In this document: piece by piece, positions 1 through 33,166 of the stretch
How the letters are laid out: each line of letters starts with the position of its first letter
How positions within the stretch are numbered: position 1 is the first letter of the stretch
DNA from: Patescibacteria group bacterium
GTDB lineage: Bacteria; Patescibacteriota; Minisyncoccia; Phycocordibacterales; Phycocordibacteraceae
Reading direction: 5' to 3'
DNA: 64,000 bases
Assembly: GCA_018971265.1 (NCBI GenBank)
Contig: JAGXBE010000001.1
Location: 1,051 to 65,050, forward strand
Made by a program: the position numbers and the translations under genes
The notes under the pieces: generated by a model
What the model was told of the DNA's origin: nothing
Seen by the model: the letters and a program-made list of their open reading frames with translations, nothing else
Databases searched by the model: none

Positions 1-427
1 GAAATCCACCAAGAGCATTGTAGGAGAAGAAATGGGCGTAGCGCATGGAGCCGACGCCGGCGAGAATGGGCGCGACAGTGCGCACGATAGGCACAAAGCG
101 CGCGAGAATGACCGCGCGGCCACCGTAGGTTTTGAAGAAATCCTGCGTGCGCGCGACGTATGCCTGTTTAAAAAACCGCGAGTCTTTGCGATGAAAAAGA
201 CTCTCGCCGATATTCGCGCCAAACCAGTACCCTACCGAGTCACCGAGTATTGCCATGGCGACGACGACGAAGACTAGGGGTCCGAACGCGAGAAAGCCGC
301 CGGCGGAAAGAAGCCCCGCGACAAAAAGAAGCGAATCGCCCGGAAAAAAGACGCCGAAAAGGAGTCCGCTTTCGGCAAAGATGAGTATTGCTATTCCCAG
401 GTAACCGCCCGTCTTTACGATGGCCAT
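1..427 (-). CDS. DedA/TVP38 family membrane protein (C-terminus lies beyond the window start)
   Basis: Reverse-strand frame with ATG at 427-425 translates to MAIVKTGGYLGIAILIFAESGLLFGVFFPGDSLLFVAGLLSAGG... This matches the DedA signature region and reads open to the window edge. It is absent from the ORF track because it has no in-window stop. Confidence 0.6.
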   Translation of the reverse strand, partial: MAIVKTGGYLGIAILIFAESGLLFGVFFPGDSLLFVAGLLSAGGFLAFGPLVFVVVAMAILGDSVGYWFGANIGESLFHRKDSRFFKQAYVARTQDFFKTYGGRAVILARFVPIVRTVAPILAGVGSMRYAHFFSYNALGGF

Positions 428-489
428 CGGGTCGAGATGTATACACGCGGTCAAAAAATCAAGCATTCTCGTACAGTATACTAGAAAAT

Positions 490-3261
490 ATGGAATCCGC
501 GCCAAAGCTGTCAACGCCCGAGGAAGAACTTGCCTATTTGCGCGAGCAGGTCGCGCGCAAGGAACAAGAACTTCGGAAACGCGGAACATCGGACATTCAT
601 GCGGAACGTCCGCGCATTATTTCCGAGGAAGTTCGCGCGTATCACGCCGCCGCCCCGGAAATGCTCGCGAACGAATATCGTCTCAGTGATACGGCGGCGC
701 ATGATGCCGCCTCGAAGATATTCGCCGAGCTCAACTTTGGCGGCGATGAGGCCGCAATCGCTTCTCTGCAAGCCACGATGGAAGAAAGGGGAATTAAAAA
801 CGCGCTCATGGTGCTTGAGAAACTCCATAATCCGCATATCACGGACGACTTTCACCGGTATCTCGTGCGCTACGTTGCGGCCGGGCTGCCGCTTACCGGC
901 GCTAATGAGAACGGTCCGCGTTTTCAAGCTCTCCATATGACGCTCTATGAAATCGCACTTCCGGGACCAAAGAACGAAGAATCGAACGCACGCACGAAGA
1001 CGCTTAAAGAGCTCGTCTCCGCCATGGAGCAATTTTACGCGGGACTCCTTTCGGTCGAGGATGCTGCGCCCGGTGAGCCGCACTATTATGCGCTCGAGCT
1101 TGCGGTACCCGCGGACAGTCCCGAACTCCAGTTTTATGCAGCAGTGCCGAGCGGTAAGCGTTCACTTTTTGAAAAACAGCTCCTTGCGATTTTTCCGGAT
1201 GCGCACATCGTGCCGCAGCCGAACGACTACAACATATTCGTGCCGGGCGGCGTCGCGCTCGTTTCGACCGCGCGGCTTGCAGAGAATCCCGCGCTGCCCT
1301 TGAAGGACTATACCGATTTCGACTACGACCCCTTGAACGCCATCACGAACGCCTTTGCCAAAATAGAACACGTCGGCGAGGGCGCTGCGCTCCAGATAGT
1401 CATCGAGCCGCGTGCCGAGCGGCACGTGAAGCATTATCAGAAGATTCTCCGCGCCCTCCGGAAGGGCGAGAAACATACCGCGGCGTTTTCCATCCCGGAA
1501 ACGGCTCTGGGCGAATTCGCACGCGATATCGGCAAAGCGCTGTTTTCGAGCAAACCCAAAGATGAGGAAAGGGCAAAGGAAGTCGAGATTCGCCAGATAG
1601 AGACGAACAAGGCGCACGTCGAGCAGGTGGAAAAAAAGATCGCCACGCCCATCGTCGGCGCAACGATACGCCTCTCCGCTTCTTCAAAGGACGAAAGCAA
1701 GGCGCAGCAGGTGCTCGGCGAACTTGAGGCGGCGTTCAATCAGTTCGCGAATACGCAGGGAAACAGGTTGGAATTCACGCGCGCCGCGAAGCGGCGCGCG
1801 CAAAGCATTTTCGATGATTTTTCTTTCCGTCTGCCAGACTCATCGGCGCTTCCGCTCTCGCTCCGCGAGCTTACGACCATCTATCACTTCCCGCCGTCGG
1901 GCATCGAGAGTTCGCCGCACCTGAAGCAGGCGCGCTTCACGCACGCACCAGCGCCGCTTACACTTACGCAAACGGGCGCGCTCCTCGGCGCGAACAGTTA
2001 TCGGGGACAGGAGACGCGCATCTACCTCGACCCCGAAGATCGCCTGCGCCACCTCTATATCATCGGCCAGACGGGCACCGGCAAGACCGGTCTCATGAAA
2101 AGCATGATCATCCAGGATATTAAAAATGGCGAAGGATGTTGCTTCATCGACCCGCACGGCTCCGACATTCTCGACATCCTCGCTGCCGTGCCGCCCGAGC
2201 GGTACAAAGATGTCATTTATTTCGACCCCGCCGACCTCTCGCGCCCGTTCGGGCTCAACTTCCTCGAGTACGACTTTTCGCGCCCCGAGCAGAAAACATT
2301 CATCGTGAACGAGCTTCTCATGATCTTCCGCCGGCTCTATGGCGACGTTCCCGAAAGTATGGGTCCCGCATTCGAACAATATTTCCGCAACGCAACTCAG
2401 CTCGTGATGGAGGACCCGGCGAGCGGTTCGACGATTCTCGACATTGCGCGCGTGCTCTCCAACAGCGACTTCCGGCGCGCAAAGCTCAATAAGAGCATGA
2501 ACCCCATCGTGAACCAATTCTGGAATGAAATCGCGAGCAAGGCCGGCGGGGACGCGGCGCTCGAGAACATCGTGCCGTACATCACCAACAAGTTCGACGA
2601 CTTCACCGCGAACGATTTCATCCGTCCCATCGTGGGGCAGCAGGAATCCTCGTTCAAATTCCGCGAGGTAATGGATAACAAGAAAATACTTCTCGTGAAC
2701 CTCTCGAAAGGACGTCTCGGCGAAAGAAATGCGAACCTACTCGGCCTCATCATCGTCGGCAAGCTCTTTATGGCGGCGCTCGCGCGCGCGGATAACCCGC
2801 GCGCGGCGTATCCGCCATTCTATCTCTACATCGACGAGTTCCAGAACGTGACTACCGATTCGATCCCCGGCATCCTCTCCGAAGCGCGCAAATATAAGCT
2901 TGCGCTCACGGTGGCGCACCAGTTTCTCAACCAAATTGAAGAGAAGACGCGCGACGCGGTTTTCGGCAACGTCGGTAACATGGCGGTTTTCCGAGTGGGC
3001 GAGGAAGACGCCGAGTTTTTCGCGAAACAATTCGCGCCGGTCTTCGCGACGCTCGACTTCGTGAACATAGAGAACCGCAATGCGTACATAAAGATTCTTG
3101 CGAACGGCATACCCCAGAAGCCGTTTGACATGAAGACGTCGGACTTGCCGGCCTTGAACCACGAACAGGTAGACGACCTTATTCAGCTTTCCTCGCTCAC
3201 CTACGGCCGCGACCGTGCTACAGTTGAGAGTGTGATTCGCGAGCGGTACCTCTCGCATTAA
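490..3261 (+). CDS. HerA/VirB4/type-IV-coupling-protein-like P-loop ATPase (FtsK-HerA superfamily) with an unassigned N-terminal domain of about 500 aa
   Basis: Start taken at MESAPKL (490), just after a TATACT box. Walker A is IIGQTGTGKTG, followed by CFIDPHGSDILDIL (HerA/DUF87-like DPHGE motif). Walker B is LYIDEFQNV and a Q-rich VAHQFLNQIEEKTRD motif follows. The TIYHFPPSG motif precedes the ATPase. Confidence 0.65.
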   Translation: MESAPKLSTPEEELAYLREQVARKEQELRKRGTSDIHAERPRIISEEVRAYHAAAPEMLANEYRLSDTAAHDAASKIFAELNFGGDEAAIASLQATMEERGIKNALMVLEKLHNPHITDDFHRYLVRYVAAGLPLTGANENGPRFQALHMTLYEIALPGPKNEESNARTKTLKELVSAMEQFYAGLLSVEDAAPGEPHYYALELAVPADSPELQFYAAVPSGKRSLFEKQLLAIFPDAHIVPQPNDYNIFVPGGVALVSTARLAENPALPLKDYTDFDYDPLNAITNAFAKIEHVGEGAALQIVIEPRAERHVKHYQKILRALRKGEKHTAAFSIPETALGEFARDIGKALFSSKPKDEERAKEVEIRQIETNKAHVEQVEKKIATPIVGATIRLSASSKDESKAQQVLGELEAAFNQFANTQGNRLEFTRAAKRRAQSIFDDFSFRLPDSSALPLSLRELTTIYHFPPSGIESSPHLKQARFTHAPAPLTLTQTGALLGANSYRGQETRIYLDPEDRLRHLYIIGQTGTGKTGLMKSMIIQDIKNGEGCCFIDPHGSDILDILAAVPPERYKDVIYFDPADLSRPFGLNFLEYDFSRPEQKTFIVNELLMIFRRLYGDVPESMGPAFEQYFRNATQLVMEDPASGSTILDIARVLSNSDFRRAKLNKSMNPIVNQFWNEIASKAGGDAALENIVPYITNKFDDFTANDFIRPIVGQQESSFKFREVMDNKKILLVNLSKGRLGERNANLLGLIIVGKLFMAALARADNPRAAYPPFYLYIDEFQNVTTDSIPGILSEARKYKLALTVAHQFLNQIEEKTRDAVFGNVGNMAVFRVGEEDAEFFAKQFAPVFATLDFVNIENRNAYIKILANGIPQKPFDMKTSDLPALNHEQVDDLIQLSSLTYGRDRATVESVIRERYLSH

Positions 3262-3267
3262 AGCCGT

Positions 3268-5286
3268 ATGCAAGAAGGAGAACAAGGATTCCCGCAACCC
3301 AAACAACCCGATGAAAATTCGGAAAAACCGGGCGTACCCGAGGATAAGGGCGAGGCGTGGCTTAGGGAAAACATGGCGTTCCAGAAGGGAGAGTGGACCG
3401 TCACGTCCTCCGAATCCGGGCTAACAGATGCGCGCGACATCGACGATGACTTGATCGATGGAGACGAAGAAGGAAGTCCGAACTCGGGATCATGGATTTT
3501 CGCGCACCCCCTTCGACCGGCCAATGACTCGGAAAACGCAGGGAGGGTTGACAATCAGTCGCCCGGGACCGAGGGCACGCCGAAAGAGTGGCGCGAGAAG
3601 TTGAGGGGGCTTATTAAGGGCGCGAACGAACGGTTTGGATTTAGCGAGCGCGCAGAATCTCTCCAGGGTTATCTCGCAGAGCGTTCGAAAGGTTTTGATA
3701 CGAAAGCGAAAGAGTACGGACCGAAAGCGGAGAAACTTATTCGCTCTCTCGGCGAGAAATATAACAAGCTCGGCTGGAAGTCCAAGCTTGCGGTCGGTGC
3801 AAGTCTCGGCATCGGCGCAGCAGCATTTTCCGGGGTATCAACGTCGCTCGCGCTTCTTTTTGGCGCGGGGCTCGCCGCGCAACGCGTCGCCGGCATGACA
3901 GGCATGTTCCTCAAGTTTGAAAAACATTTGCAAGATACGGGAGAAGGGAAGTCGCAGGGTTTTTTCGCGCAGCAGGAGTGGTACAAAAAAATAGCGGAAA
4001 GACCGGAACAGCAGCGGAAACTCGCCGCGGCAATCATGTCACTCACCTATACCGGAGCCATGAGCGTCTCGATAGGAGAAGCAGTTCATCTCGCAAGCGG
4101 AACCGCTTGGGGCGAGGCAACGCACGAGTGGTTGAAGCAACACTGGCCGTTCGGAACTGCGGAACCGGCGCCCGCGACCGCACATAACGGGCGTGAAGTA
4201 TCCGGAATCATCCGACATCCCGAAGCCGTGCCGGCGCCGAGCGCACCCCCAATGCCGGAAATTTCAGTGCCGGCATCAACCGGGCATGGTGCCGAATACA
4301 TGCTGAAACGAGTCTGGGAAGATCTTCAGGAGAAACATCTTGATCCGAGCAACTACGCGCAAAATAGCGATATTCACCGACTCCTCACGGCCGATGCGCA
4401 TTCAATCGACACGCTTGTACACCAAATCGCCGCCGATCCGCAGCACGGCTTTTTCCATGCGGATGGCACGAGCGTCCGCATCAGTCCGGACGCGCATATG
4501 ACCATCGACGAACACGGCGAGATCCTTCTCTCTGACCCCGGCCACAAACTGACCTGGGCGCCCTCGCATTTGCCGACCACGCCGGCACACTCTCCTGAGG
4601 CGCCCGCCGCGCATTCCGAGGCGGTTCTCAAAAATATCGACTCGCCGGCGGTACCCGAAGTACCTGTTTCAGCGGGCGCATCTCTCCCTGCCGAGACCGT
4701 CGTCGCGCCACACGCACCGGCGGCAGAGCACGCGCCCGCCCCTGAAAGCATTCCGGCAGGGCACCCTGGCACCGAATCGTCCGACGGCCCGGTCCTGCAC
4801 GACAATGAAGGGAGTATCGTGCAGGACAGGGAAGGCAGTCCTGTCCACACCGAAGCATACGGGTCGCTGCCCGAAAATGCGCCGTCTGCAACGGAACATG
4901 CAATTCCGAATCCGGAAGTCCCTCCTCCCCCCGCCGTCGCAATGGAGCACACGAGTCCTTTTATAAATCACAATGCGTTGTCGGTTGACCCGACCCACGA
5001 ACACATCTTCCAGGACACGAACGGTGCTTTGCTTGCCTACGGCAACGATCACGACGCGCAATTCAGGGCGGCGCAGGAGTACGTCAAAACGCACCACGAT
5101 GCGATTATCTGGGTACAAGCGGGGAAACCGGTTTTCTATAACGGCGAATGGAAACCTTGGGTATACTCGGTTCAATATGGCGGCTGGTGGCGAGGCGTAT
5201 ATGCGCTCATCCCTACCGAGGCGCCGGATCCGTCTCAGATAGGCGGTATCAATCCGGAAACGTTTATAAAACAACTCGACAAATAA
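3268..5286 (+). CDS. hypothetical membrane-anchored protein with a long Pro/Ala-rich low-complexity linker
   Basis: Sits 7 nt after the ATPase stop on the same strand. Acidic N-terminus, hydrophobic segment LAVGASLGIGAAAFSGVSTSLALLFGAGLAA, PA-rich region and a Trp/Tyr-rich C-terminal domain. The protein-like composition contrasts with the Arg/Cys-rich antisense ORFs. Confidence 0.55.
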   Translation: MQEGEQGFPQPKQPDENSEKPGVPEDKGEAWLRENMAFQKGEWTVTSSESGLTDARDIDDDLIDGDEEGSPNSGSWIFAHPLRPANDSENAGRVDNQSPGTEGTPKEWREKLRGLIKGANERFGFSERAESLQGYLAERSKGFDTKAKEYGPKAEKLIRSLGEKYNKLGWKSKLAVGASLGIGAAAFSGVSTSLALLFGAGLAAQRVAGMTGMFLKFEKHLQDTGEGKSQGFFAQQEWYKKIAERPEQQRKLAAAIMSLTYTGAMSVSIGEAVHLASGTAWGEATHEWLKQHWPFGTAEPAPATAHNGREVSGIIRHPEAVPAPSAPPMPEISVPASTGHGAEYMLKRVWEDLQEKHLDPSNYAQNSDIHRLLTADAHSIDTLVHQIAADPQHGFFHADGTSVRISPDAHMTIDEHGEILLSDPGHKLTWAPSHLPTTPAHSPEAPAAHSEAVLKNIDSPAVPEVPVSAGASLPAETVVAPHAPAAEHAPAPESIPAGHPGTESSDGPVLHDNEGSIVQDREGSPVHTEAYGSLPENAPSATEHAIPNPEVPPPPAVAMEHTSPFINHNALSVDPTHEHIFQDTNGALLAYGNDHDAQFRAAQEYVKTHHDAIIWVQAGKPVFYNGEWKPWVYSVQYGGWWRGVYALIPTEAPDPSQIGGINPETFIKQLDK

Positions 5287-5296
5287 ACACCGTGCT

Positions 5297-5605
5297 ATGA
5301 TGCCACCCATGCAAGACGAATTAACCTCCGCAATTGCGAACGACCTCGGCATCGCCGGCCTTCCGCCTGCGGAACAGCAGGCGCTCATCGGACAGTTTGG
5401 AGAGATCGCTCTTAAGGCCGCAACGCTCTCGGTCATGGAGAAACTTTCCGATGAGAAGCGCGCCGCGTTCGCAAAGCTTTCGGAGGAAGGGGATGCCCCC
5501 GCAATCAAGGCCTTCCTCGACCTTGAATTGCCCGGACACGAGGAGGTGGTGAAGCAGGCGGTTGCCGAGGAAGTGAAGCGATTTAAAAATTTTCAGACAG
5601 CATAA
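5297..5605 (+). CDS. hypothetical small helical protein (102 aa)
   Basis: Co-directional ORF 11 nt after the previous gene, with an alpha-helical, acidic composition. It resembles small conserved CPR proteins, but the family could not be verified. Confidence 0.45.
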   Translation: MMPPMQDELTSAIANDLGIAGLPPAEQQALIGQFGEIALKAATLSVMEKLSDEKRAAFAKLSEEGDAPAIKAFLDLELPGHEEVVKQAVAEEVKRFKNFQTA

Positions 5606-5621
5606 TATATACTTACGTTAT

Positions 5622-6158
5622 ATGAAACCAACCCAGACTGGAATCGCTGTTGCGCTTGCGCTCGTCGTGATCGCGGCGTTCTTTATTTTCCCGGGCCTTT
5701 TGCCCTTCACTTCGTCGGGCGCGGTCGGGACCGAGACGCCTGTTACTAACAATAATGACACGAACGTGCAAACAGCATCTGCCACAGCATCTACCGAATC
5801 TGCCGGTACACCTCCGGTTACGCAGCTTACGGTGACTGACGAAGTCGTCGGTACAGGCGCCACTGCGGTAGCGGGCGACAGTGTAACAGTTAACTATGTC
5901 GGCGCTCTGACTAACGGTACCGTTTTCGATGCCTCCGCCAATCACGGGACTTCCGGCTTTACCTTCACGCTCGGCGCGGGACAGGTCATTAAAGGATGGG
6001 ACGAGGGCATCGTCGGTATGAAAGTGGGCGGCAAGCGAAAGCTCATCATCCCCGCTTCGCTCGCGTACGGCAACCAAGCAATCGGGAACATAATCCCGGC
6101 AAACTCAACTCTTGTTTTCGAAGTTGAGCTTTTAAAGGTACAGACGCAGGGTAAGTAA
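5622..6158 (+). CDS. FKBP-type peptidyl-prolyl cis-trans isomerase, membrane-anchored or secreted
   Basis: N-terminal TM/signal (IAVALALVVIAAFFIF). FKBP core motifs are VTVNYVGALTNGTVFDAS, GAGQVIKGWDEGIVGMKVGGKRKLIIP and LVFEVELL. Confidence 0.8.
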   Translation: MKPTQTGIAVALALVVIAAFFIFPGLLPFTSSGAVGTETPVTNNNDTNVQTASATASTESAGTPPVTQLTVTDEVVGTGATAVAGDSVTVNYVGALTNGTVFDASANHGTSGFTFTLGAGQVIKGWDEGIVGMKVGGKRKLIIPASLAYGNQAIGNIIPANSTLVFEVELLKVQTQGK

Positions 6159-6267
6159 AAGCTTGCGTTTCTATCAGTAATGTGCTATAAGATTTACTGG
6201 TAAGTAACGGTCTTTTGTATGCCTTGCCCGAGGGTTTGTCGGGTGCACAAGAAAGGAAGGGGTCATT

Positions 6268-6861
6268 ATGATCTCCAGGTTGGTTGCGCGAATCACTCTT
6301 GCGAGTATGCCTCTCTTGCTCGGGGCGTGCGCCTCGATGTCATCTTTCAACGGGTATGTTTCGGCGTCATCCGAAGATGCGAAGAAAGTGGAGCATGGCG
6401 GGTACTCTGATGCGGCGACGGCGCAAATTGCCGTTGTACAGAACCCGGATTTCAACGGCGGCAGAATCTCCCCGCGGGCGCTGAAGAAAATACAGGAATA
6501 CTCGATCTCCTGTCAGCGGCAGATCGACGTACAGCTCGCGGGTGCCGGACAATCCGGGGTGAACGGTGCCGTGCCCTACGGCGTTGCGGGACTCGGTGTC
6601 GGCCCCGCCGCAAAAGCTGCGTTTGCGGGGGCAAGCATGCACGCATACGCGCTCTACGGCGGCATCGCGTATCTCTTGCCGGGTGCAGTGAACGGCCTCA
6701 TCACGGGTTCCTACGCCATGGCATCGGCGAAAGGGACGTGTACGCGCGATTTCTGGGAAGACGTGGTTCACACGGATCCGGATTTCCGCGGCACGCACGT
6801 CGTGGTGGTGTACGCCGGGAAGGCATTCGGTAATTCCATGCCTCCGGCGCTCAAGAAATAG
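6268..6861 (+). CDS. putative lipoprotein (hypothetical)
   Basis: Signal peptide ending in the lipobox LLGAC. Gly/Ala-rich mature region. One of the few genes with an AGGAAGGGG SD-like motif upstream. Confidence 0.55.
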   Translation: MISRLVARITLASMPLLLGACASMSSFNGYVSASSEDAKKVEHGGYSDAATAQIAVVQNPDFNGGRISPRALKKIQEYSISCQRQIDVQLAGAGQSGVNGAVPYGVAGLGVGPAAKAAFAGASMHAYALYGGIAYLLPGAVNGLITGSYAMASAKGTCTRDFWEDVVHTDPDFRGTHVVVVYAGKAFGNSMPPALKK

Positions 6862-10278: not shown

Positions 10279-12927
10279 ATGACTACTAAAAAACAAAGCG
10301 CCAAGGAAGAGCATAAGCACAAACACGGGAGCGACTGGCTCACTGTGAGGGGTGCGCGTACGCATAACTTGAAAAATATCTCGGTTGAAATGCCACGAGG
10401 CGCAATGACGGTCATCACCGGCCTTTCCGGGAGCGGAAAGTCCTCGCTCGCTTTTGACACCATTTTCGCTGAAGGGCAGCGGCGCTATGTCGAATCACTT
10501 TCCGCGTATGCCCGGCAATTTCTCAATCAGATGGCAAAGCCGGATGTCGACGAGATTGCCGGCCTCTCGCCCGCCATTTCTATAGATCAGAAGAGCCGTT
10601 CCAACAATCCGCGCTCGACGGTTGCCACGGTTACCGAAGTCTATGATTATCTGCGCGTTCTCTACGCGCGTGCAGGCCAGCCGTACTGCGTCCATCACGA
10701 CGTGCCCATCGTGAAGCTATCGAAAGAAGAGATGGTTAAAATGGTATTTGCGCGCGTGGAGGCGAAACGCGCAAGAACGAATACCGAGGTCATGGGCGTT
10801 GCCGTCGACAAGAGTGCCGTAACTATTTATGCACCGGTGGTCGTCGGCCGGAAAGGAGAATACTACCAACTGCTCTACGATCTTCTCGGCAAGGGATACG
10901 AGAAGGTGGTCATCGACGGGAAGCCGCAATTGTTGCGCGAGAAAATCGCCCTCGATAGGAACAAGCGTCACGATATCGACGCCGTAGTCGATAGCATCTT
11001 CGTTTCCGAATTCACGCGCGGGACAGCAAGCGCCCGGGAGCGGCTTTCCGAAGCGCTCGAACTCGCTCTCAAAGAGGCCGATGGCTTGGTGAAAATATCC
11101 CATGCCGACGGTACGCTTGAAACCCTTTCGTCGAAATTCATTTGCCCGGAAGACGGCGCTTCTTTCCCGGAAGTCGAGCCGCGGCTCTTTTCTTTCAACT
11201 CGCCTTACGGCGCGTGCCCCACATGCAACGGACTTGGCACCGAGACTCTTTTTTCCGAAAAATCCTGCCCAACCTGCCTCGGCAAACGTTTGCGGCCCGA
11301 GGCGCTGCGCGTGTACCTTAAAGGAAAGAAAGACAAAACGCTGGGGAAAAATATCGTGGATTTCACCGACATGTCCATCAAAGAAGCGAAAGAGTTCGTC
11401 GACTCTATCGAACTCTCGGAAATGAAATTCGACATCGCCATGCCTATTCTGAAGGAGATAGACAGCCGTCTTACCTTCATGTTGAACGTCGGTCTCGACT
11501 ACCTCACCCTCAATCGTTCGGCGGCGACGCTTTCCGGCGGAGAGGCGCAGCGCATCCGGCTCGCCTCGCAGCTGGGGAGCGGGCTCACCGGTGCGCTTTA
11601 TGTGCTTGACGAGCCGACCATCGGACTCCATCAGCGTGACAACGATCGCCTCATCAAGACGCTGCTCACGCTGAAAGAGCTCGGCAACACCATCCTCGTC
11701 GTCGAACATGACGAAGACACGATTTTTTCTTCCGACTATCTCGTGGACATCGGCCCAGGAGCCGGTACCCACGGCGGCACAGTCGTCGTTTCCGGCTGGC
11801 TCGATGATCTTTTGACCGCGAAGGAAAACGAGACCGGTTCCGCGACGCTCGCGTACCTGCGTCAAGAGAGAGAAATTTCCGTCCCGGAGACGCGCCGCAC
11901 GAGCGAAAAGGGTTCTCTAAAAGTGCGCGGTGCAACGCTCCATAATCTTGTGAACCAAAACATCGACATACCCCTAGGGAAGCTCGTGTGCATTACGGGA
12001 GTGTCCGGAAGCGGCAAATCGACCTTCCTCTACGACATTTTGCATCGCAATATCGCCGCCCGATTTGCGAAGCGGGAAGCAAAGCTCGAGCACATCGCCT
12101 CACTCACCGGCACCGAATACATCGGTCGCGCAGTGCTCATCGATCAGTCTCCCATCGGCCGGACACCGCGCAGCAACCCCGCGACCTATACCGGCGCCTT
12201 TACGCACATTCGCGACCTCTTTGCTGCGACTGCCGAAGCGCGCGCGCGCGGCTGGAAACCGGGACGCTTTTCTTTCAATGTTCCCGGCGGACGCTGCGAG
12301 GCCTGCCAGGGAAACGGTTCCATCGCGGTGGAGATGCATTTCCTCCCGACCGTCTACGTGACCTGCGACATCTGTCTCGGCAACCGCTTCATGAAGGAGA
12401 CGCTCGAGATAACCTATCGAGGGAAAAATATCCATGAAGTGCTTCAAATGACCGTTGAGGATGCGGAGAAGTTTTTCGGCGACATCCCCGCCATCAATGA
12501 CCGGCTCTCGAGTCTGAATGCGACCGGGCTCGAATATCTCACGCTCGGACAGAGCGCGACGACGCTTTCGGGCGGGGAGGCGCAGCGTGTGAAAATCGCA
12601 AGCGAGCTGTACCGCAAAGTAACGATGAAAACCATTTACCTGCTCGACGAGCCGACCGTCGGCCTCCACTATGAGGATGTGAAGAAGCTTATCGAGATTC
12701 TGCAGGAACTCGTGCGGCGCGGGAGCACCGTCGTTGTCATCGAGCACAATCTTGATGTCATCAAAAGTGCGGACCATCTCATCGACTTCGGTCCCGAGGG
12801 CGGTGTGGGCGGCGGCAAAGTGGTCGCAAAAGGTACACCCGAAGAAGTCGCCGATACGGAGGGTTCCCACACGGGCGAATATCTTTCGAAGATTCTGAAA
12901 CGCCATGCAACGAAGCGAGCTCGTTAA
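10279..12927 (+). CDS. uvrA: excinuclease ABC subunit A
   Basis: Two ABC modules ([15 protein letters not shown] and [13 protein letters not shown]), LSGGEAQR signatures and zinc-finger CxxC pairs. Confidence 0.95.
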
Positions 12928-14143
12928 ATTCGACCTGCCGGACGTACCCGGTGTGTACCTGTTCAAGCAGGGGAGAAAGATTCTGTATGTCGGGAAAGCG
13001 ACAAATTTGCGGGACCGTGTGAAGTCGTATTTCGACGATGATCTGATAGCGACGCGCGGCCCGCGCGTTGTGGACATGGTGACGAAAGCCGATCGCATCG
13101 CCTTTGAAACGACACCAACGGTGCTTGAGGCGCTTGTGCGCGAAGCCGCACTCATTAAGAAACACCGTCCGTCTGCAAATACCGAAGGGAAAGACGATAA
13201 GACTTTTCTTTACGCGGCGATAACAAACGAGATGATTCCGCGCGTGCTCATGATACGCGGGAAGGATATTGATTTTAAGAATAAAAAATCGCAAGACATC
13301 GCCTTGCGTGCCCTCTATGGCCCGTTCCCGTCGGGCGCACAGTTGAAAGAGGGCCTGCGCCTCATACGCCGCATTTTCCCATTTTTTGATACAGCGAAAC
13401 CAGTGACGGTGCAGAGTAAACACCAAGCGGCGAAGATTGAATTCAACGCGCAGATTAAGCAATACCCCCGTACGTTCGAGGCCGGTGAGTATCGTCGTAC
13501 GATACGGCGGGTGATGCTTTTTTTGAGTGGTCGCGGCAAAGAGCTGCGCGCTCTGCTCGAACACGAGATGCGTGCGGCGGCGAAGAACGAGCGATTTGAA
13601 GACGCAGCCGAAGCGCGCCGCGAGCTTTTTGCGCTCGACCATATTCAAGACGTTTCGCTCATCAAGGATGGAAACCTTACAGGGCTCCGAGCGAATACCG
13701 CAAGCGCCCGCATCGAGGCCTATGACACTGCGCACCTTTCAGGCACGAACGCAATCGGTGTCATGACGGTGATTGAGGACGGCGTGCCGGCCAGACGCGA
13801 GTACCGGACGTTTCGCATACGCAGCGTTCAGAAGAACGATGACATTGCGTCCCTGAAGGAGATACTCATGCGGCGCATCAAGCATCCGGAGTGGTCATTT
13901 CCGAAAGCGATTATTGTGGATGGTGGGAAAGCGCATAAAAAAGCCGCGGAAAATGTGCTGAGTGCGGCTGGCCTCAATATTCCGGTCATAGCCGTGGTAA
14001 AGGATGAACGGCACCGGCCGCGCGAAGTTATCGGCGCACACCGGGTGTTCGTAAGCGATGCCGATGCCGTACTTGCCAATAGCGAGGCGCACCGCTTTTC
14101 GCTTGCGCGGCATCGACGCGCCCGGAGTAAAAGCATTCGTTAA
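12905..14143 (+). CDS. uvrC: excinuclease ABC subunit C, short form lacking the C-terminal (HhH)2 domain
   Basis: GIY-YIG N-terminus (VPGVYLFKQGRKILYVGKATNLRDRVKSYF), a UVR motif, and an RNase-H-like endonuclease domain (IEAYDTAHLSGTNAIGVMTV). Ends at 412 aa. Overlaps the uvrA end by 23 nt. Confidence 0.85.
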   Translation: MQRSELVKFDLPDVPGVYLFKQGRKILYVGKATNLRDRVKSYFDDDLIATRGPRVVDMVTKADRIAFETTPTVLEALVREAALIKKHRPSANTEGKDDKTFLYAAITNEMIPRVLMIRGKDIDFKNKKSQDIALRALYGPFPSGAQLKEGLRLIRRIFPFFDTAKPVTVQSKHQAAKIEFNAQIKQYPRTFEAGEYRRTIRRVMLFLSGRGKELRALLEHEMRAAAKNERFEDAAEARRELFALDHIQDVSLIKDGNLTGLRANTASARIEAYDTAHLSGTNAIGVMTVIEDGVPARREYRTFRIRSVQKNDDIASLKEILMRRIKHPEWSFPKAIIVDGGKAHKKAAENVLSAAGLNIPVIAVVKDERHRPREVIGAHRVFVSDADAVLANSEAHRFSLARHRRARSKSIR

Positions 14144-14219
14144 GTACCAAGTTTGACACCGGTGTCTGCGCCTGTAGTATTCATGATGGAATCTTCCATA
14201 AACCGCCGAGGAGTGTGCT

Positions 14220-14633
14220 ATGTTCGAGTCGACTGTCGTCCTCATCAAGCCGGATGGGGTTCTGATGGGGGTCGGCGAAAGAATCATTGAGCGTTATCTG
14301 ATGTCGAAGTTGGGCCTGCACAAACGCAGAGACATTTACTTTTCGCTCCGCCAGGCAGAAACTTTTTATGGCGAGCACGCCGGACGATTTTATTTCCCGG
14401 GACTCGTGTTGGCGATGACCAGCGGGCCATCAATCGCAATGGTGCTGCAGGGGGAGAATGCAGTGGCTCGAGTCCGCGAACTGAACGGAGCGACAAACCC
14501 GAGTAAAGCCGTCCCAGGCACAATCCGGCACGATTTTCGAAGTGCGGGCGGACCGTTTAACACGGTCCACGGTTCGGATAGTGTCGAGGCCGCTCGTAGG
14601 GAAATGGACGTGGTGTTCTGGAACTTAATCTAG
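14220..14633 (+). CDS. ndk: nucleoside diphosphate kinase
   Basis: TVVLIKPDGV ... NTVHGSDSVEAARREM, typical Ndk length (137 aa). Confidence 0.9.
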   Translation: MFESTVVLIKPDGVLMGVGERIIERYLMSKLGLHKRRDIYFSLRQAETFYGEHAGRFYFPGLVLAMTSGPSIAMVLQGENAVARVRELNGATNPSKAVPGTIRHDFRSAGGPFNTVHGSDSVEAARREMDVVFWNLI

Positions 14634-14677
14634 TCTTGTTCGCCGTTTTGCGCCGCTTCTTTGAGCGGCGTTTCTTT

Positions 14678-14686
14678 TGGTATACT
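14678..14686 (+). promoter_or_regulatory. extended -10 box TGGTATACT 7 nt upstream of the ddl ATG (leaderless-type promoter)
   Basis: TGnTATAnT motif seen in the sequence. The same arrangement recurs at many genes in the window. Confidence 0.4.
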
Positions 14687-14692
14687 TTCCTC

Positions 14693-15655
14693 ATGCAAAC
14701 TATCGTCGGCGTGCTGCGTGGCGGGCCGTCGCGCGAACATGAAGTCTCGCTCAAGACGGGTGCGGCCATTCTCGCAAATCTGCCTGAAGACCAATTTCTC
14801 GCGCGTGACATTTATATCGATAAAAATGGCGGGTGGCATGATCGCGGGCGCCCAACCGCGCCCGATCGCGTGTTGCGCCAGCTCGATGTTATTCTCATCG
14901 GTCTTCATGGTGAATACGGCGAGGACGGGGGCGTCCAGAAACTGCTCGACCGGTTCGGGGTCCCCTATGCCGGCGCGGATTCCTTCGGTTCGTATCTCGC
15001 GATGCACAAGCTCATGGCAAAAGTGCGCGCGCAAGAGACAGGGCTCTTCACACCGAAGTTCCGGCACATCGAGCGTGTCGCGGATGCCGAGGCGGCAGTA
15101 CGCGAGATCATCCGTGCCTTCCCGCAGCCGGTTGTCGTGAAGCCGGTCGGTTGGGGTTCATCGATCGGTGTTTCCATCGTGGGCGGGTATGCGCCGGTAC
15201 TCGCCGCAATCGAAGGACTTTTTACCGAAGGCGCGCCGAGTGTCCTCGTTGAGGAATATATCCGAGGTCGAGAAGCGACGGTGGGAGTCGTTGAAAAGCT
15301 CAGGAACAAACCGCTTTACGTACTTCCAACAATCGAAATAATACCGCGGAAGGGAAATTTCTTTTCGTATGCCGCCAAATATTCCGGCGAAACACGCGAG
15401 ATTTGTCCGGGCAATTTCTCTCGCGTCGTGACGGAAGAGCTTCAAAAAGCAGCGGAAATAATGCACCGCGCCCTTGGCCTAAGGCATTACTCGCGCACGG
15501 ATTTTCTTATCGCACCGAAAGGCGTGTATTACCTGGAGACCAACACATTGCCAGGCCTTACCGAGGAATCTCTCCTACCGAAATCACTCGCTGCAGTCGG
15601 CGTTTCGTTTCCAGACTTCCTCTCACATCTGGTCAATCTTGCGCTCACGCGGTAG
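14693..15655 (+). CDS. ddl: D-alanine--D-alanine ligase
   Basis: MQTIVGVLRGGPSREHEVSLKTG and ATP-grasp motifs. Start chosen at 14693 rather than the upstream in-frame ATG at 14636. Confidence 0.85.
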   Translation: MQTIVGVLRGGPSREHEVSLKTGAAILANLPEDQFLARDIYIDKNGGWHDRGRPTAPDRVLRQLDVILIGLHGEYGEDGGVQKLLDRFGVPYAGADSFGSYLAMHKLMAKVRAQETGLFTPKFRHIERVADAEAAVREIIRAFPQPVVVKPVGWGSSIGVSIVGGYAPVLAAIEGLFTEGAPSVLVEEYIRGREATVGVVEKLRNKPLYVLPTIEIIPRKGNFFSYAAKYSGETREICPGNFSRVVTEELQKAAEIMHRALGLRHYSRTDFLIAPKGVYYLETNTLPGLTEESLLPKSLAAVGVSFPDFLSHLVNLALTR

Positions 15656-15666
15656 AGTTTCTGCAG

Positions 15667-15739
15667 GGGCCGTTAGCTCAGTTGGTAGAGCACCTCGTTT
15701 GCAACGAGGGGGTCGCAGGTTCGAATCCTGTACGGTCCA
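15667..15739 (+). tRNA. tRNA-Ala (anticodon TGC)
   Basis: Cloverleaf folded by hand. Acceptor GGGCCGT with a G3:U70 pair (Ala identity element), anticodon loop TTTGCAA, T-loop TTCGAAT. Confidence 0.8.
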
Positions 15740-15789
15740 CAGAGCGAGAAAAAGTCGGATTATAGCACCGGCTTTTTCTTGCTTTGTGG

Positions 15790-15824
15790 CGGCGGATGTA
15801 CAGGATTCGAACCGATACGGTCCA
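15790..15824 (+). other. degenerate duplicate of the tRNA-Ala(TGC) 3' end (tRNA fragment)
   Basis: ggatgtacaggattcgaaccgatacggtcca shares TACGGTCCA and TTCGAA with the Ala 3' end located 50 nt upstream. It cannot fold as a T-arm. Confidence 0.4.
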
Positions 15825-15855
15825 TCTATCTTTTTATGTTATCCTGCTACAGTTC

Positions 15856-16042
15856 GCGCTCTTAGCTCAGTTGGTTAGAGCAGTTCGTTCACCCCGTTAG
15901 ATAATTGGGCGGTTAGCTCAGTTGGTTAGAGCGTACGCTTCACACGCGTAAGGTCACAGGTCCGATTCCTGTACCGCCCACCGGGTGTTATCTAACGGGG
16001 CAAGCACGCGAAAGGTCAGGGGTTCGAATCCCTTAGAGCGCA
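15856..16042 (+). ncRNA. Val-like tRNA gene split into 5' and 3' halves by a 135-nt insert that itself contains tRNA-Val(CAC); the halves are bridged by a 13-bp inverted repeat
   Basis: The 5' half gcgctct/ta/gctc-agttggttag-agc...gttcgttcac is complementary at the acceptor to the 3' end agagcgc, with T-arm aggggttcgaatccctt. Between them, ccccgttagataa (15892-15904) and ttatctaacgggg (15988-16000) are perfect reverse complements bracketing the inner tRNA. The outer anticodon stem pairs poorly as written. Confidence 0.35.
15907..15980 (+). tRNA. tRNA-Val (anticodon CAC), nested inside the split Val-like gene
   Basis: Acceptor GGGCGGT/ACCGCCC, D-arm tagctcagttggttagagc, anticodon stem tacgc/gcgta with loop TTCACAC, T-arm acagg-tccgatt-cctgt. 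Confidence 0.8.
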
Positions 16043-16061
16043 CACGGGAGGTGTTCTGTGT

Positions 16062-16133
16062 CGGGCCGGAGTATGCCGGTAGTACGCACGCTTCGGGTGC
16101 GTGTAGACCGGGTTCAATTCCCGGCGGCCCGAC
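16062..16133 (+). tRNA. tRNA-Pro (anticodon CGG)
   Basis: Acceptor CGGGCCG/CGGCCCG with C1:G72, anticodon stem cacgc/gcgtg with loop TTCGGGT, T-arm ccggg-ttcaatt-cccgg. Flanked by 11-bp direct repeats gaggtgttctg at 16048-16058 and 16153-16163. Confidence 0.8.
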
Positions 16134-16305
16134 AAAGAACATCTCTCGAAGAGAGGTGTTCTGGACCGCCAGGAATTGAGGGCCGGAGCGCGACGGCGTG
16201 AGGCGGGGTCGCGCAACACTCACAACGGGCTATAAGCAAAGCTTTCGTCTCCGTTGTTCCGGAGAGAATAATCATAGGAAGACTTGTGTTACTCTTCCTC
16301 CACAA

Positions 16306-16376
16306 CGGGCTATAGTATACCGGTAGTACGCATGCATGGGGTGCATGTAGACCGGGTTCGATTCCCGGTAGCCCGA
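16306..16376 (+). tRNA. tRNA-Pro (anticodon GGG)
   Basis: Acceptor CGGGCTA/TAGCCCG, anticodon stem catgc/gcatg with loop ATGGGGT, T-arm ccggg-ttcgatt-cccgg. Its first 14 nt (cacaacgggctata) are repeated at 16221-16234. Confidence 0.7.
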
Positions 16377-16461
16377 AAGTAGCGAAGCGAGGTAAGGAAT
16401 GGGAACGCGGAACGTTCGCCCGGGAATCGAAGGTCGGAAGGGTGAATTTTATTTTTCCGCG

Positions 16462-16470
16462 TGATAAAAT
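16462..16470 (+). promoter_or_regulatory. extended -10 box TGATAAAAT 9 nt upstream of tRNA-Ala(CGC)
   Basis: TGnTAnnAT motif seen in the sequence. Confidence 0.35.
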
Positions 16471-16479
16471 CGTCCCTAT

Positions 16480-16552
16480 GGGCCATTAGCTCAGTTGGTA
16501 GAGCGCGTCATTCGCATTGACGAGGTCAGGAGTTCGACTCTCCTATGGTCCA
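16480..16552 (+). tRNA. tRNA-Ala (anticodon CGC)
   Basis: Acceptor GGGCCAT/ATGGTCC with G3:U70, anticodon stem cgtca/tgacg with loop TTCGCAT, T-loop TTCGACT. Confidence 0.8.
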
Positions 16553-16561
16553 CCGTGCTTC

Positions 16562-16632
16562 GGGCCTATAGTTCAGCGGTAGAACGCGTCCATGGCATGG
16601 ACGAGGTCGGGGTCCGACTCCCCGTAGGTCCA
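16562..16632 (+). tRNA. tRNA-Ala (anticodon GGC)
   Basis: Acceptor GGGCCTA/TAGGTCC with G3:U70, anticodon stem cgtcc/ggacg with loop ATGGCAT. Confidence 0.75.
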
Positions 16633-16723
16633 CAAAATTAACGAGCCGTAATCGGCGATTATAATTTTGTAGGATATCGAGGTATTCCGAGGCGCCACAA
16701 ACAAAAAGTGTTACTATAATTTC

Positions 16724-17125
16724 ATGCTAAAAGAATTTAGACAATTTTTACTTCGCGGAAATGTCGTCGATCTGGCGGTTGGCGTCGTAGTCGGCGCAGC
16801 ATTCGGCACAGTTGTATCAGCTCTCGTCTCTGATCTCTTAACCCCGCTTATCGGCGCGGTCGCTAAAGTCCCTGACTTTAGCAAACTCTCGTTCACCCTC
16901 AACGGAAGCACATTCATGTATGGCCACCTCTTTAACGCGCTCATTTCTTTCGTTCTTGTCGCCGGCGCCGTTTTCTTTTTTGTGGTGAAGCCGATGAATT
17001 TGCTCGTTGCGCATTCGCGCACGGAAGCGCCGGCCGATCCGACAACCAGGAAATGTCCGGAATGCATGAGCGAGATTCCAATCAATGCGAAGCGCTGCAT
17101 GTACTGCACGCAAACCGTTGCTTGA
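16724..17125 (+). CDS. mscL: large-conductance mechanosensitive channel with a C-terminal zinc-ribbon-like tail
   Basis: MLKEFRQFLLRGNVVDLAVGVVVGAAFG is the MscL signature. The C-terminus ends KCPECMSEIPINAKRCMYC (CxxC...CxxC) instead of the usual helical bundle. TATAAT box at 16715-16720. Confidence 0.85.
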   Translation: MLKEFRQFLLRGNVVDLAVGVVVGAAFGTVVSALVSDLLTPLIGAVAKVPDFSKLSFTLNGSTFMYGHLFNALISFVLVAGAVFFFVVKPMNLLVAHSRTEAPADPTTRKCPECMSEIPINAKRCMYCTQTVA

Positions 17126-31831: not shown

Positions 31832-33166
31832 ATGGCGATGAAAAAACTCAAGGAGAAGTTCGGTATCCGTATTATGCCCTGGCCAGTTTTCATGCTCGGC
31901 CTCATGATTCTGTTAACTTCGTTCGTGTTCATGCCCGGCGTCGTCTCGCTCGCTCTCTCATTGGCTCTCTTTCTCGCCCCCGTGTGGCTGCCGTTTCTCC
32001 TTGTCAGTGGTGCGTGGACGCTCTGGATCATTTTCCGGCGTTCGGAATTCATCGCGGAGCAAAATTACATGCTTCTTGAAATTAAACCGCCGCGCGGTCT
32101 TGAAAAGACCCCGCTCGCAATGGAGGCATTTTTCTCCGGCATACACCTCTCCCCGGGTGAAGCCACGTGGTATAAAAAATATATTAAAGGGGCGGTACGT
32201 CCGTGGTGGTCGCTTGAAATAGCTTCTCTGGAAGGAGAGGTGCATTTCTTCATATGGACGCGCGCAGCTTTTCGCAGAATTGTCGAGGCACAGATGTATG
32301 CGCAGTACCCGGGCGTGCAGATAGTCGAGGCCCTCGACTATACGCGTCTCATCACCGCGACATCAAAAGATTGGAGTATTTGGGGTTGCGATTTCGCGCA
32401 TACGGCCGAGGATCCCATTCCCATCAAAACATACATCGAATACGGTCTTGATAAAGTGCAGAAGGAACCGGAACAAGTCGATCCGCTTGCGAACCTTGTT
32501 GAATTTATGGGCTCGATAGGGAAGGGCGAATATCTCTGGCTCCAGCTCATCATCCGCGTCCACAAGGGTGAGAAATACAATAAGTTGAATGCGAGTGGCA
32601 AGGTATATACCTGGAAGGACGAGGCGAGAGATTTGGTACAAAGGCTTCGCGCGGAGACGGTCGGGAAAGTAAAATATAAAGATATATTTACCGGCGAGAC
32701 GCGCGAAACCGACGGATTTCCGAACCCGACAAAAGGTCAGTCGGAGAAAATGGCCGCCATTGAACGCAACGTTTCGAAGCTTGGTTTTGACGTGGGCGCG
32801 CGGGGCGTGTACCTGGCGCGACCGGAAAAGTTCGATCCGATAATGATTTCCGGTTTGACGGGCATCTTCAAGCAGTTTTCTTCGGAAGGATGGAATGGAT
32901 TCAGACCGAGCGGGTGGATGACCGAGTTCGACGACTATCCTTGGGAGTTCGGCGTGAGCAAGCTGAAAGATAAATATAGGACTTGGCTTATCGACGCATA
33001 TCGCCGCCGCCAATTTTTTCACGACCCCTTCAAAAAGGATGCCATGGTGATGAGTACCGAGGAGCTCGCGACCATTTTTCATATTCCTTCACGCGCAATC
33101 GGTACACCGTCTCTCGCGCGCATTCAGTCAGCTACGAGCGAGGCGCCCGCGAATCTTCCGGTCTGA
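31832..33166 (+). CDS. membrane-anchored protein (2 N-terminal TM helices) homologous to the N-terminal domain of the 490-3261 ATPase
   Basis: Two TM helices, then a soluble region that aligns with the pre-ATPase domain of the 957-aa protein. WSLEIASLEGEVHFFIW ... YAQYPGVQI pairs with YALELAVPADSPELQFYAAV ... IFPDAHI. MSTEELATIFHIPS pairs with SLRELTTIYHFPPS. Confidence 0.55.
   Translation: MAMKKLKEKFGIRIMPWPVFMLGLMILLTSFVFMPGVVSLALSLALFLAPVWLPFLLVSGAWTLWIIFRRSEFIAEQNYMLLEIKPPRGLEKTPLAMEAFFSGIHLSPGEATWYKKYIKGAVRPWWSLEIASLEGEVHFFIWTRAAFRRIVEAQMYAQYPGVQIVEALDYTRLITATSKDWSIWGCDFAHTAEDPIPIKTYIEYGLDKVQKEPEQVDPLANLVEFMGSIGKGEYLWLQLIIRVHKGEKYNKLNASGKVYTWKDEARDLVQRLRAETVGKVKYKDIFTGETRETDGFPNPTKGQSEKMAAIERNVSKLGFDVGARGVYLARPEKFDPIMISGLTGIFKQFSSEGWNGFRPSGWMTEFDDYPWEFGVSKLKDKYRTWLIDAYRRRQFFHDPFKKDAMVMSTEELATIFHIPSRAIGTPSLARIQSATSEAPANLPV

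Follow-up and report, generated by a model that had tools for sequence, protein, structure and literature searches.

Among the closest described counterparts of the gene analysed here are the VirD4-type coupling-protein homologues of Patescibacteria, surveyed by Quinonero-Coronel et al. (2025, PMC12102498). That survey counts 5,713 of these homologues in 2,918 of 3,035 genomes, about two per genome, places only 148 of them near virB4 and gives their role as not known. VirB4 systems of monoderm (MPF-FATA) ancestry are reported there for ~80% of Patescibacteria, with the gene of the type IV coupling protein (t4cp) often far from virB4, and TrsD proteins, which resemble the N-terminal part of VirB4, are described as abundant. 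In Southlakia the coupling homologue is dispensable though the secretion system is essential, and the authors state that exaptation cannot be ruled out. Our subject is a gene that appears to belong to this group, located at 490-3261 of a stretch of 64,000 nucleotides (nt), hereafter the window, from a Patescibacteria group bacterium (GenBank assembly GCA_018971265.1, contig JAGXBE010000001.1, positions 1,051 to 65,050 of the forward strand).

A second point of reference comes from phage SPP1, whose re-annotation describes gp32 as a non-essential protein without transmembrane (TM) segments and with a C-terminus that resembles TrwB, VirB4 and FtsK; its authors suggest that gp32, together with the small membrane proteins adjacent to it, may form a translocon (PMC6316719).

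A preliminary description of the window, made from the DNA letters alone, had grouped the gene with the four that follow it into one envelope-spanning machine in a genome of the candidate phyla radiation type. The five plus-strand open reading frames (ORFs) are all present and the genome belongs to the Kaiserbacteria/Paceibacteria. Here, we compare the encoded ATPase with sequence and structure families, with relatives on plasmids and phages, and with the corresponding loci of other genomes. Its N-terminal DUF8128 domain has, as modelled, the fold of the VirB4 N-terminal domain, and its C-terminal half is of the coupling-protein type. We conclude that the gene probably encodes a stand-alone translocation motor and that the proposed five-gene machine should be dropped.

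Results

A VirB4-like N-domain on a coupling-protein-type ATPase

The front region of about 500 amino acids (aa), in which the preliminary description had recognised nothing, carries PF26449 (DUF8128), as precomputed for an identical protein (P0001) and for all relatives. A search with aa 1-487 over 1.8 billion cluster representatives returned 886 relatives, and in the full-length ones the domain always stands N-terminal to the ATPase, in proteins of 800-1120 aa. An AlphaFold2 (AF2) model of aa 138-500, based on a 118-sequence alignment that included more distant relatives from a profile search, reached a predicted local distance difference test score (pLDDT) of 89.4 and a predicted template modelling score (pTM) of 0.87. 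The top 14 Foldseek matches of this model were all TrwK chains, and in a library of viral structures the best match was gp156 of Bacillus phage G (7e-17), accompanied by phages JL and Slash and by phage G gp155. Single-sequence and profile searches of the PDB with the N-domain found nothing. The model thus points to the fold of the VirB4 N-terminal domain.

Family searches place the second half of the protein among the coupling proteins. In Pfam, DUF87 (aa 505-557, the Walker A region) and TraG-D_C (25.1 bits, cut-off 22) passed their thresholds, which TrwB_AAD_bind narrowly missed. Among the NCBIfam models, TraD (5.5e-15), TOL TraD and the CD1115 VirD4-like model (9e-9, aa 516-841) ranked far above VirB4, the full-length cut-offs of NCBIfam not being reached. 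The VirB4 profile TIGR00929 gave only E 0.017 over 28 residues, and neither AAA_10 nor CagE matched. When the PDB was searched with a profile of 22 diverse members, TrwB (1e-4) and DotL/IcmO (8e-4) were the sole significant solved relatives, the alignment to TrwB taking in the regions of Walker A and of Walker B/Q alike, and no VirB4, FtsK or HerA chain was significant. Translated searches (tblastn) with aa 495-923 found homologues at 26-35% identity across most of the domain on 227 plasmids, hosted by Bacillus, Clostridium, Streptomyces, haloarchaea, Sulfolobus (pTC) and alphaproteobacteria and annotated as “type IV secretion system DNA-binding” or “TraM recognition” proteins. None of the catalytic residues varies among 22 diverse relatives. 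Because of this ranking of families, the TrwB and DotL profile matches, the plasmid annotations and the invariant residues, the ATPase half is best classed, within the FtsK-HerA superfamily, as coupling-protein-type and active-looking, and as neither FtsK-like nor VirB4-like. The superfamily assignment of the preliminary description is thereby narrowed to the VirD4 side.

Clustering with ordinary FtsK/SpoIIIE proteins was not seen in the profile searches: there was no FtsK_SpoIIIE match in Pfam or NCBIfam, no FtsK chain in the PDB searches, and no TM segment in the protein. As to HerA, the DUF87 match covers only the Walker A region, the N-domain is VirB4-like and no barrel, and no nuclease gene is adjacent. 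A role in a defence system was considered and rejected, as PADLOC gave only Walker-A-level HerA and DndH matches and a mad8 match, with no partner genes.

The motifs quoted in the preliminary description are all in place: IIGQTGTGKTG at aa 524-534, FIDPHGSDIL at aa 552-561, YIDEF at aa 780-784 and the Q-rich motif, as AHQFLNQIEE, at aa 809-818. Its length of 957 aa needs correction, because it counts the longest possible ORF, which opens at TTG 388. Homologues have lengths of 916-925 aa and begin with MES.PKLSTPEEE, and a divergent DedA gene upstream starts at ~466 or 427, which leaves ~23-62 nt between the start codons; for these reasons the true start is ATG 490, giving 923 aa. With this minus-strand gene upstream (a DedA homologue also occurs in locus L009), the ATPase gene would therefore head its own transcription unit. 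An 81-aa plus-strand ORF at 32-277 was rejected as an upstream gene, since it is an antisense frame of the divergent DedA gene.

The sole hydrophobic peak of the ATPase (aa 747-765) lies within the ATPase core. In total, 3126 homologues were found, the best 120 of which are 79-86% identical, with PF26449, PF01935 and PF12696 as precomputed domains. The N-terminal helical extension (aa 1-137) is the least conserved stretch of the protein. A subgroup of ~800-aa relatives in the cluster-representative search begins at query residue ~146, and in two of these (P0220 and P0239) an N-terminal hydrophobic helix replaces the extension. The full-length AF2 model (31 homologues, ~80% identical) had a pLDDT of 51.6 and was not used for fold searches; only this low-confidence model predicts that ~250 aa between Walker A and B are helical.

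Compared with TrwB of R388, TraD, VirD4 and DotL, the protein shares a P-loop domain in which Walker A, DPxG, the DEF of Walker B and a Q-containing motif align to TrwB, matches to the TraG-D_C, TrwB_AAD_bind and T4SS-DNA_transf families, and perhaps the long helical stretch that the low-confidence model predicts between Walker A and B. It differs from these coupling proteins in that an N-terminal TM domain is missing, that a VirB4-like N-domain of ~360 aa and a helical extension of 137 aa are added, that no relaxase or type IV secretion system (T4SS) gene is a neighbour, and that the gene lies on the chromosome, apparently in one copy, and shows the conservation of a housekeeping gene. With VirB4/TrwK it shares the N-terminal-domain fold ahead of the ATPase but not the C-terminal domain, which is nearer to the coupling proteins in sequence, nor adjacent VirB3, VirB6 and VirB8 genes. 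The gene also lies outside the dnaA-proximal VirB4 cluster of Patescibacteria reported in PMC12102498. It fits the orphan VirD4-type homologues of that survey, which are near-universal and almost never beside virB4, although the N-domain, its VirB4-like fold, a DUF8128-only paralogue and phage or plasmid relatives are not described in the portion of text consulted.

Relatives on plasmids and phages

The same architecture is encoded outside Patescibacteria. An 833-aa “DUF87” protein on plasmid pBM69 of Bacillus methanolicus matches the N-domain hidden Markov model (HMM) colinearly (E 1.4e-10) and is 26% identical to the window's ATPase over 499 aa, from the linker motif to the C-terminus (2e-36). 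Directly downstream of it follow, in order, a relaxase-family protein (Replic_Relax), TcpC (VirB8-like), TcpE (VirB3-like) and an 860-aa AAA_10 ATPase (VirB4/TcpF-like), an arrangement in which this protein takes the place of the coupling protein in a conjugation module of the monoderm type. It shares with the window's ATPase the two-domain layout, the E(E/L)..I..(L/F)P linker motif and the lack of TM segments, and differs in being plasmid-borne, in lying upstream of relaxase and conjugation genes and in having no 137-aa extension. A further 17 Bacillaceae plasmids share the N-part of the pBM69 protein. The coupling protein of pLS20 was rejected as a comparator, being of the canonical two-TM type and of another family (PMC8557374).

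Homologues were also found by tblastn in 48 phages, nearly all of Bacillus, and phrog_5156, a PHROG family with no function assigned there, matches aa 206-918 of the ATPase at 1.3e-66. Direct matches of the N-domain HMM include phage G gp156 (825 aa, 7e-18) and SPP1 gp32 (836 aa, 7.5e-8), rising to ~1e-35 to 1e-42 after iteration. These two proteins have the same architecture, similar sizes (825-836 aa) and no TM segment; they differ from the chromosomal ATPase in being products of phage early genes, non-essential in the case of gp32, and in having identities of only ~21-25%. The DUF8128 and coupling-type ATPase family is therefore present in conjugative plasmids, phages and Paceibacteria chromosomes.

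In phage G, a second ATPase, gp155 (L093 691-2340, 549 aa, annotated VirB-like), is encoded directly upstream of gp156 and matches the DUF8128 model in Foldseek at 3e-8. The two would form a VirB4-like and coupling-like pair within one jumbo phage.

A DUF8128-only paralogue

A profile search of the window's own ORFs found a paralogue without an ATPase domain (Table 1). By BLASTP it aligns with aa 178-492 of the ATPase, its C-terminus ends in an S.EELATIFH.P motif, the same as the ATPase linker motif, and its N-terminus has a hydrophobic region of about two helices, a layout that resembles that of the Patescibacteria TrsD proteins. Its family comprises 2769 homologues, all tagged PF26449, in a fixed context of LeuRS, a sigma70_r4/HARE-HTH protein, DUF8128, YceG (MltG) and MnmA. 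The paralogue is a candidate membrane partner of the ATPase and its most obvious docking candidate.

Neighbourhood and evolutionary rate in related genomes

Conservation of the neighbourhood had been proposed as a check, and it held within one lineage and failed among distant relatives. In a scan with one genome per species, at least 569 stretches encoded the ATPase, and 80 loci with 49-84% ATPase identity were examined; neighbours were identified by tblastn and iterated profile searches, and only loci with at least 5.5 kb downstream were counted. At ATPase identities of ≥70% (21 loci), 57-70% (23 loci) and <57% (6 loci), the second gene of the window's block (g2) was adjacent in 19, 12 and 0 loci, the third (g3) present in 20, 14 and 1, and the FKBP gene in 21, 23 and 0, with the lipoprotein gene on the plus/minus strand in 2/10, 1/9 and 0/0. 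Pooled over the two groups of ≥57% identity, g2 is directly downstream in 31/44 loci, g3 is present in 34/44 and FKBP in 44/44. The FKBP gene directly follows the ATPase gene, with no g2 or g3, in four loci of the 57-70% group; the g2/g3 pair is missing in L017, L035, L038, L059, L061 and others that retain ATPase and FKBP, and in 15/16 loci at 45-53% identity.

In both groups of ≥57% identity, the block is followed by Tgt, UvrB and UvrA in unchanged order. Because the conserved block extends equally into these unrelated housekeeping genes, it is best seen as ordinary lineage synteny, which is limited to relatives with an ATPase identity of at least ~57-58%, that is, to one Kaiserbacteria-level lineage. 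Upstream, a 110-aa four-TM protein is usual in the same lineage, the opposite-strand DedA gene intervening in the closest relatives. At 45-53% identity the housekeeping neighbours are entirely different: in Wolfebacteria and another lineage (45-52%) the gene stands after SecY-Adk-Map and before Ndk, and in Taylorbacteria (45-52%) ahead of a MacAB-like efflux operon. In one locus at 49% identity (L080), a DUF5663-like gene and a gene for an 803-aa membrane protein are directly upstream of the ATPase gene, the only distant hint of a g2/g3-type linkage; a second DUF5663-like/large-protein pair lies 4 kb downstream and is not linked to the ATPase.

Within the nearer group, identities are 77% for the ATPase (88% in its C-terminal domain), 78% for Tgt, 84% for UvrB, 64% for FKBP, 63% for g3 and 35% for g2. 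The ATPase gene evolves about as slowly as those of Tgt and UvrB, in a housekeeping-like manner. In Paceibacteria, it is vertically inherited, slow-evolving and without conserved partner genes beyond one lineage. As the preliminary description had noted, VirB6, VirB8 and pilin genes are not among the neighbours, nor is VirB3, in Pfam and NCBIfam scans that did not cover the window exhaustively; among the scanned ORFs of the window and in the related loci, no gene for a relaxase or for mating-pair formation turned up.

Several distant loci carry further genes of note. Ndk follows the ATPase homologue directly or closely in L070 (10807-11412), L081 (9838-10506) and L085 (9818-10294), at ~45-53% identity, with Adk and Map upstream in two of them; this adjacency may reflect a link to nucleotide metabolism or merely ribosomal-operon synteny. 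In L070 (53% identity) a type IV pilus set at 11413-17125, 700 bp downstream of the ATPase gene, comprises a PilB-like ATPase, a PilC-like protein and four prepilin-like genes, as read from the sequences without profiles. In the Wolfebacteria loci L081 (8316-9696) and L082 (8272-9652), what looks like a diversity-generating retroelement, with an RVT_1 reverse transcriptase and a bAvd accessory gene, follows the ATPase homologue at a distance of ~1.4 kb.

The downstream genes of the window

The gaps between the five co-directional genes are, from 5' to 3', 6, 10, 16 and 109 nt. The TM hairpin and Pro/Ala-rich composition described for g2 are recognisable as hydrophobic segments at ~aa 174-212 and 252-270 and as Pro/Ala-rich stretches. 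Among relatives its length varies from 385 to 1260 aa, with ~50% Pro/Ala/Ser/Thr/Gly/Glu, and it has no Pfam, NCBIfam, PADLOC, PHROG or PDB match. The small protein g3 matches DUF5663 below the cut-off (E 4.6e-4), and one g3 relative passes it at 26.8 bits. Together, g2 and g3 are a lineage-specific, dispensable and fast-evolving cassette in which g3 travels with g2; a link of g2 to the ATPase is possible. A g3 relative in L053 (14508-14807) has a sub-threshold match (E 0.0078; 16.8 bits, cut-off 27) to IcmW, the adaptor of the Legionella DotL coupling complex; this match is probably due to chance.

The FKBP prolyl isomerase has the N-terminal membrane anchor and the FKBP_C domain expected from the preliminary description. 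Since it keeps its position with or without g2 and g3, it looks like a general foldase for exported proteins, and not one dedicated to the ATPase locus as had been proposed. The lipoprotein gene likewise has the LLGAC lipobox and the clear Shine-Dalgarno sequence (AAAGGAAGGGG) reported for it. It is separated from the FKBP gene by the 109-nt gap and preceded by a promoter-like site at 6244-6272, the exception in promoter and terminator scans that otherwise gave about the shuffled expectation. The gene lies on the minus (opposite) strand in 19 of the 22 loci that have it, and its product matches nothing in Pfam, NCBIfam, PADLOC, PHROG or PDB. It is a lineage-specific neighbour and not part of the ATPase unit, and FKBP, lipoprotein, Tgt and UvrBAC together are inherited synteny.

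Other features of the window

The remainder of the window is housekeeping in content, with UvrB, UvrA, UvrC, a tRNA cluster, ATP synthase, LeuRS, AlaRS, DnaK and MurG. The NUDIX hydrolase insertion of its LeuRS, located past the editing domain, is also present in L086 (944 aa) and not in the L087 enzyme (769 aa). Coordinates are collected in Table 1.

Table 1 Features of the 64,000-nt window, with positions counted from its first nucleotide
Feature	Position	Strand	Description and basis
DUF8128 + T4CP-like ATPase gene	490..3261	+	923 aa, soluble, no TM segment; ORF listing
N-terminal helical extension of ATPase	490..900	+	aa 1-137; alignment of diverse relatives, secondary structure
TPEEELAYLREQV peptide	514-552	+	conserved, inside the N-terminal extension
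DUF8128 domain	901..1824	+	aa 138-445; predicted VirB4 N-terminal-domain fold
Linker motif LSLRELTTIYHFP	1855..1893	+	joins N-domain and ATPase; near-invariant in two family alignments
T4CP-type P-loop ATPase domain	1990..3258	+	motifs and profile searches
Walker A	2059-2091		ATPase motif
DPHG	2143-2172		ATPase motif
Walker B	2827-2841		ATPase motif
SEARKY	2878-2895		ATPase motif
AHQ motif	2914-2943		ATPase motif
g2	3268..5286	+	672 aa, membrane protein with central hydrophobic segments; ORF, hydrophobicity
g3	5297..5605	+	102 aa, small acidic helical DUF5663-like protein
FKBP prolyl isomerase gene	5622..6158	+	178 aa, membrane-anchored; FKBP_C 6e-33
Lipoprotein gene g5	6268..6861	+	197 aa, LLGAC; lipobox and Shine-Dalgarno sequence
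DUF8128-only paralogue	31832..33166	+	444 aa, no ATPase domain; profile E 1.3e-48
DedA-family membrane protein gene	1-466	-	runs past the left end of the window
Six clustered tRNA genes	15667-16633	+	Ala-TGC, Val-CAC, Pro-CGG, Pro-GGG, Ala-CGC, Ala-GGC
LeuRS gene	27761-30598	+	945 aa; NUDIX hydrolase domain (PF00293, 2.4e-14) at aa 381-499
ATP-cone/Mrr-type protein gene	35713-36582	+	289 aa; ATP-cone and Mrr-type restriction-endonuclease fold, both weak matches

Discussion

We consider it probable that 490-3261 encodes a vertically inherited, stand-alone ATPase that combines DUF8128, with its VirB4 N-terminal fold, and a T4CP-like (TrwB/TraD/VirD4-type) P-loop domain, and that acts as a translocation motor feeding a membrane channel. 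Judging from its relatives, the protein would assemble as a ring-shaped, ATP-driven motor at the cytoplasmic face of the membrane. Docking may occur via the DUF8128 domain, as VirB4 docks via its N-domain, and/or via the conserved N-terminal helix; this lineage is without the N-terminal membrane helix of the shorter relatives, and the paralogue might serve as docking site. The motor would then pass a macromolecule, DNA or protein, to a channel encoded elsewhere, and the four downstream genes would not be obligate components.

Several points weigh against this reading. The grounds for homology between DUF8128 and the VirB4 N-domain are the fold and the order of domains rather than sequence, because an hhalign comparison of the family alignment with one TcpF-type VirB4 N-terminus, that of pBM69, was not significant (probability 0.3%). 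Hexamer formation and an all-alpha insertion are expected from family membership only, the full-length AF2 model being poor. The docking role given to the paralogue is conjectural, the two genes being 28 kb apart. The 6-nt spacing and the frequent retention of g2 and g3 suggest some functional tie to these genes, and the pair beside the ATPase gene of L080 suggests an independent case of it.

The alternative that survives best overlaps with this explanation and names the channel: the ATPase would be the dedicated coupling protein of a Patescibacterial VirB4-type T4SS encoded elsewhere. The class of its ATPase domain and the coupling position of the pBM69 homologue argue for it, as do the wide occurrence of VirB4 systems in Patescibacteria and the frequent remoteness of t4cp from virB4 (PMC12102498). 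The same source reports coupling homologues in 2,918 genomes, about two in each, against VirB4 in 2,417, and the homologue of Southlakia is non-essential while its secretion system is essential. Moreover, no relaxase or T4SS gene was among the ORFs scanned in the 64-kb context, and relatives in phages, SPP1 gp32 for one, function in the absence of any T4SS (PMC6316719). On this balance we regard a dedicated coupling role as possible, though rather unlikely.

A three-gene unit of ATPase, g2 and g3, with g2 as membrane partner or secreted substrate and g3 as adaptor or chaperone, seems unlikely too. Gaps of 6 and 10 nt, the high share of lineage loci with g2 directly downstream and with g3, and the different gene order at L080, where the DUF5663-like and 803-aa genes precede the ATPase gene, would suit such a unit, and SPP1 gp32 has been proposed to work with adjacent small membrane proteins (PMC6316719). 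What speaks against it is that ATPase and FKBP persist in lineage loci that lack the pair, that nearly all of the 45-53% loci lack it as well, that the second pair of L080 is not beside the ATPase gene, so that such cassettes occur independently, and that the IcmW match of the g3 relative is sub-threshold.

More speculatively, the ATPase and the paralogue beside MltG/YceG could together make up a previously undescribed core translocon in Paceibacteria, with its origin in conjugation or phage machinery, a proposal that we hold to be doubtful. Such a translocon might serve the uptake of host DNA or nucleotides, or the export of fast-evolving surface proteins like g2 with the DUF5663 protein as adaptor. 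If true, it would explain the housekeeping-level constraint on the ATPase gene in a reduced-genome epibiont.

A cytoplasmic HerA-like or FtsK-like ATPase that handles DNA in repair or chromosome segregation, away from any channel, would be in keeping with the housekeeping-like conservation, the context near UvrB, UvrA and UvrC, the lack of a TM segment, the DUF87/HerA Walker A match with the weak PADLOC matches to HerA, DndH and mad8, and the Ndk and Adk genes that adjoin the ATPase gene in other lineages. It is nevertheless improbable: the profile search recovers TrwB and DotL and not HerA, FtsK or SpoIIIE, HerA matches only in the Walker A region, other lineages do not have the Uvr genes next to the ATPase gene, a gene for a NurA-like nuclease is not adjacent, an N-terminal membrane helix is present in shorter relatives, and the N-domain corresponds to the membrane-docking domain of VirB4.

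The five-gene machine of the preliminary description, an envelope-spanning apparatus for uptake or secretion, or a pilus-like one, with its own foldase, is very improbable. Its genes are co-directional and tightly spaced in the window, four of the five proteins are membrane-bound or exported, and the order is kept in close relatives; the conserved block, however, runs on into Tgt, UvrB and UvrA, the lipoprotein gene is mostly on the opposite strand and here has its own Shine-Dalgarno sequence, gap and promoter-like site, FKBP persists where g2 and g3 are lost, and the block is not kept with the ATPase at <57% identity (g3 in 1/6 loci). A decaying integrated conjugative element or prophage remnant, which the relatives on plasmids and phages might suggest, is contradicted by GC content and skew uniform with the rest of the window, by the absence of any integrase, relaxase or repeats seen and by a distance of 15.6 kb to the nearest tRNA gene. 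It is effectively refuted by vertical inheritance at a chromosomal site that is syntenic across dozens of genomes at species level, with a rate of evolution as slow as that of Tgt.

Conclusions

This family and its Pfam domain had already been recorded, as had the fact that the Patescibacterial coupling homologues are orphans. Added here are the assignment of the N-domain to the VirB4 N-terminal fold, the links to pBM69-type proteins and to SPP1 gp32-like proteins, the housekeeping-level constraint, and the paralogue. With a predicted VirB4-type N-domain on a coupling-type ATPase, the subfamily would be architecturally intermediate between VirB4 and VirD4. The results reveal no new kind of system; they offer concrete, testable partners and comparators for a family that has been without an assigned function.

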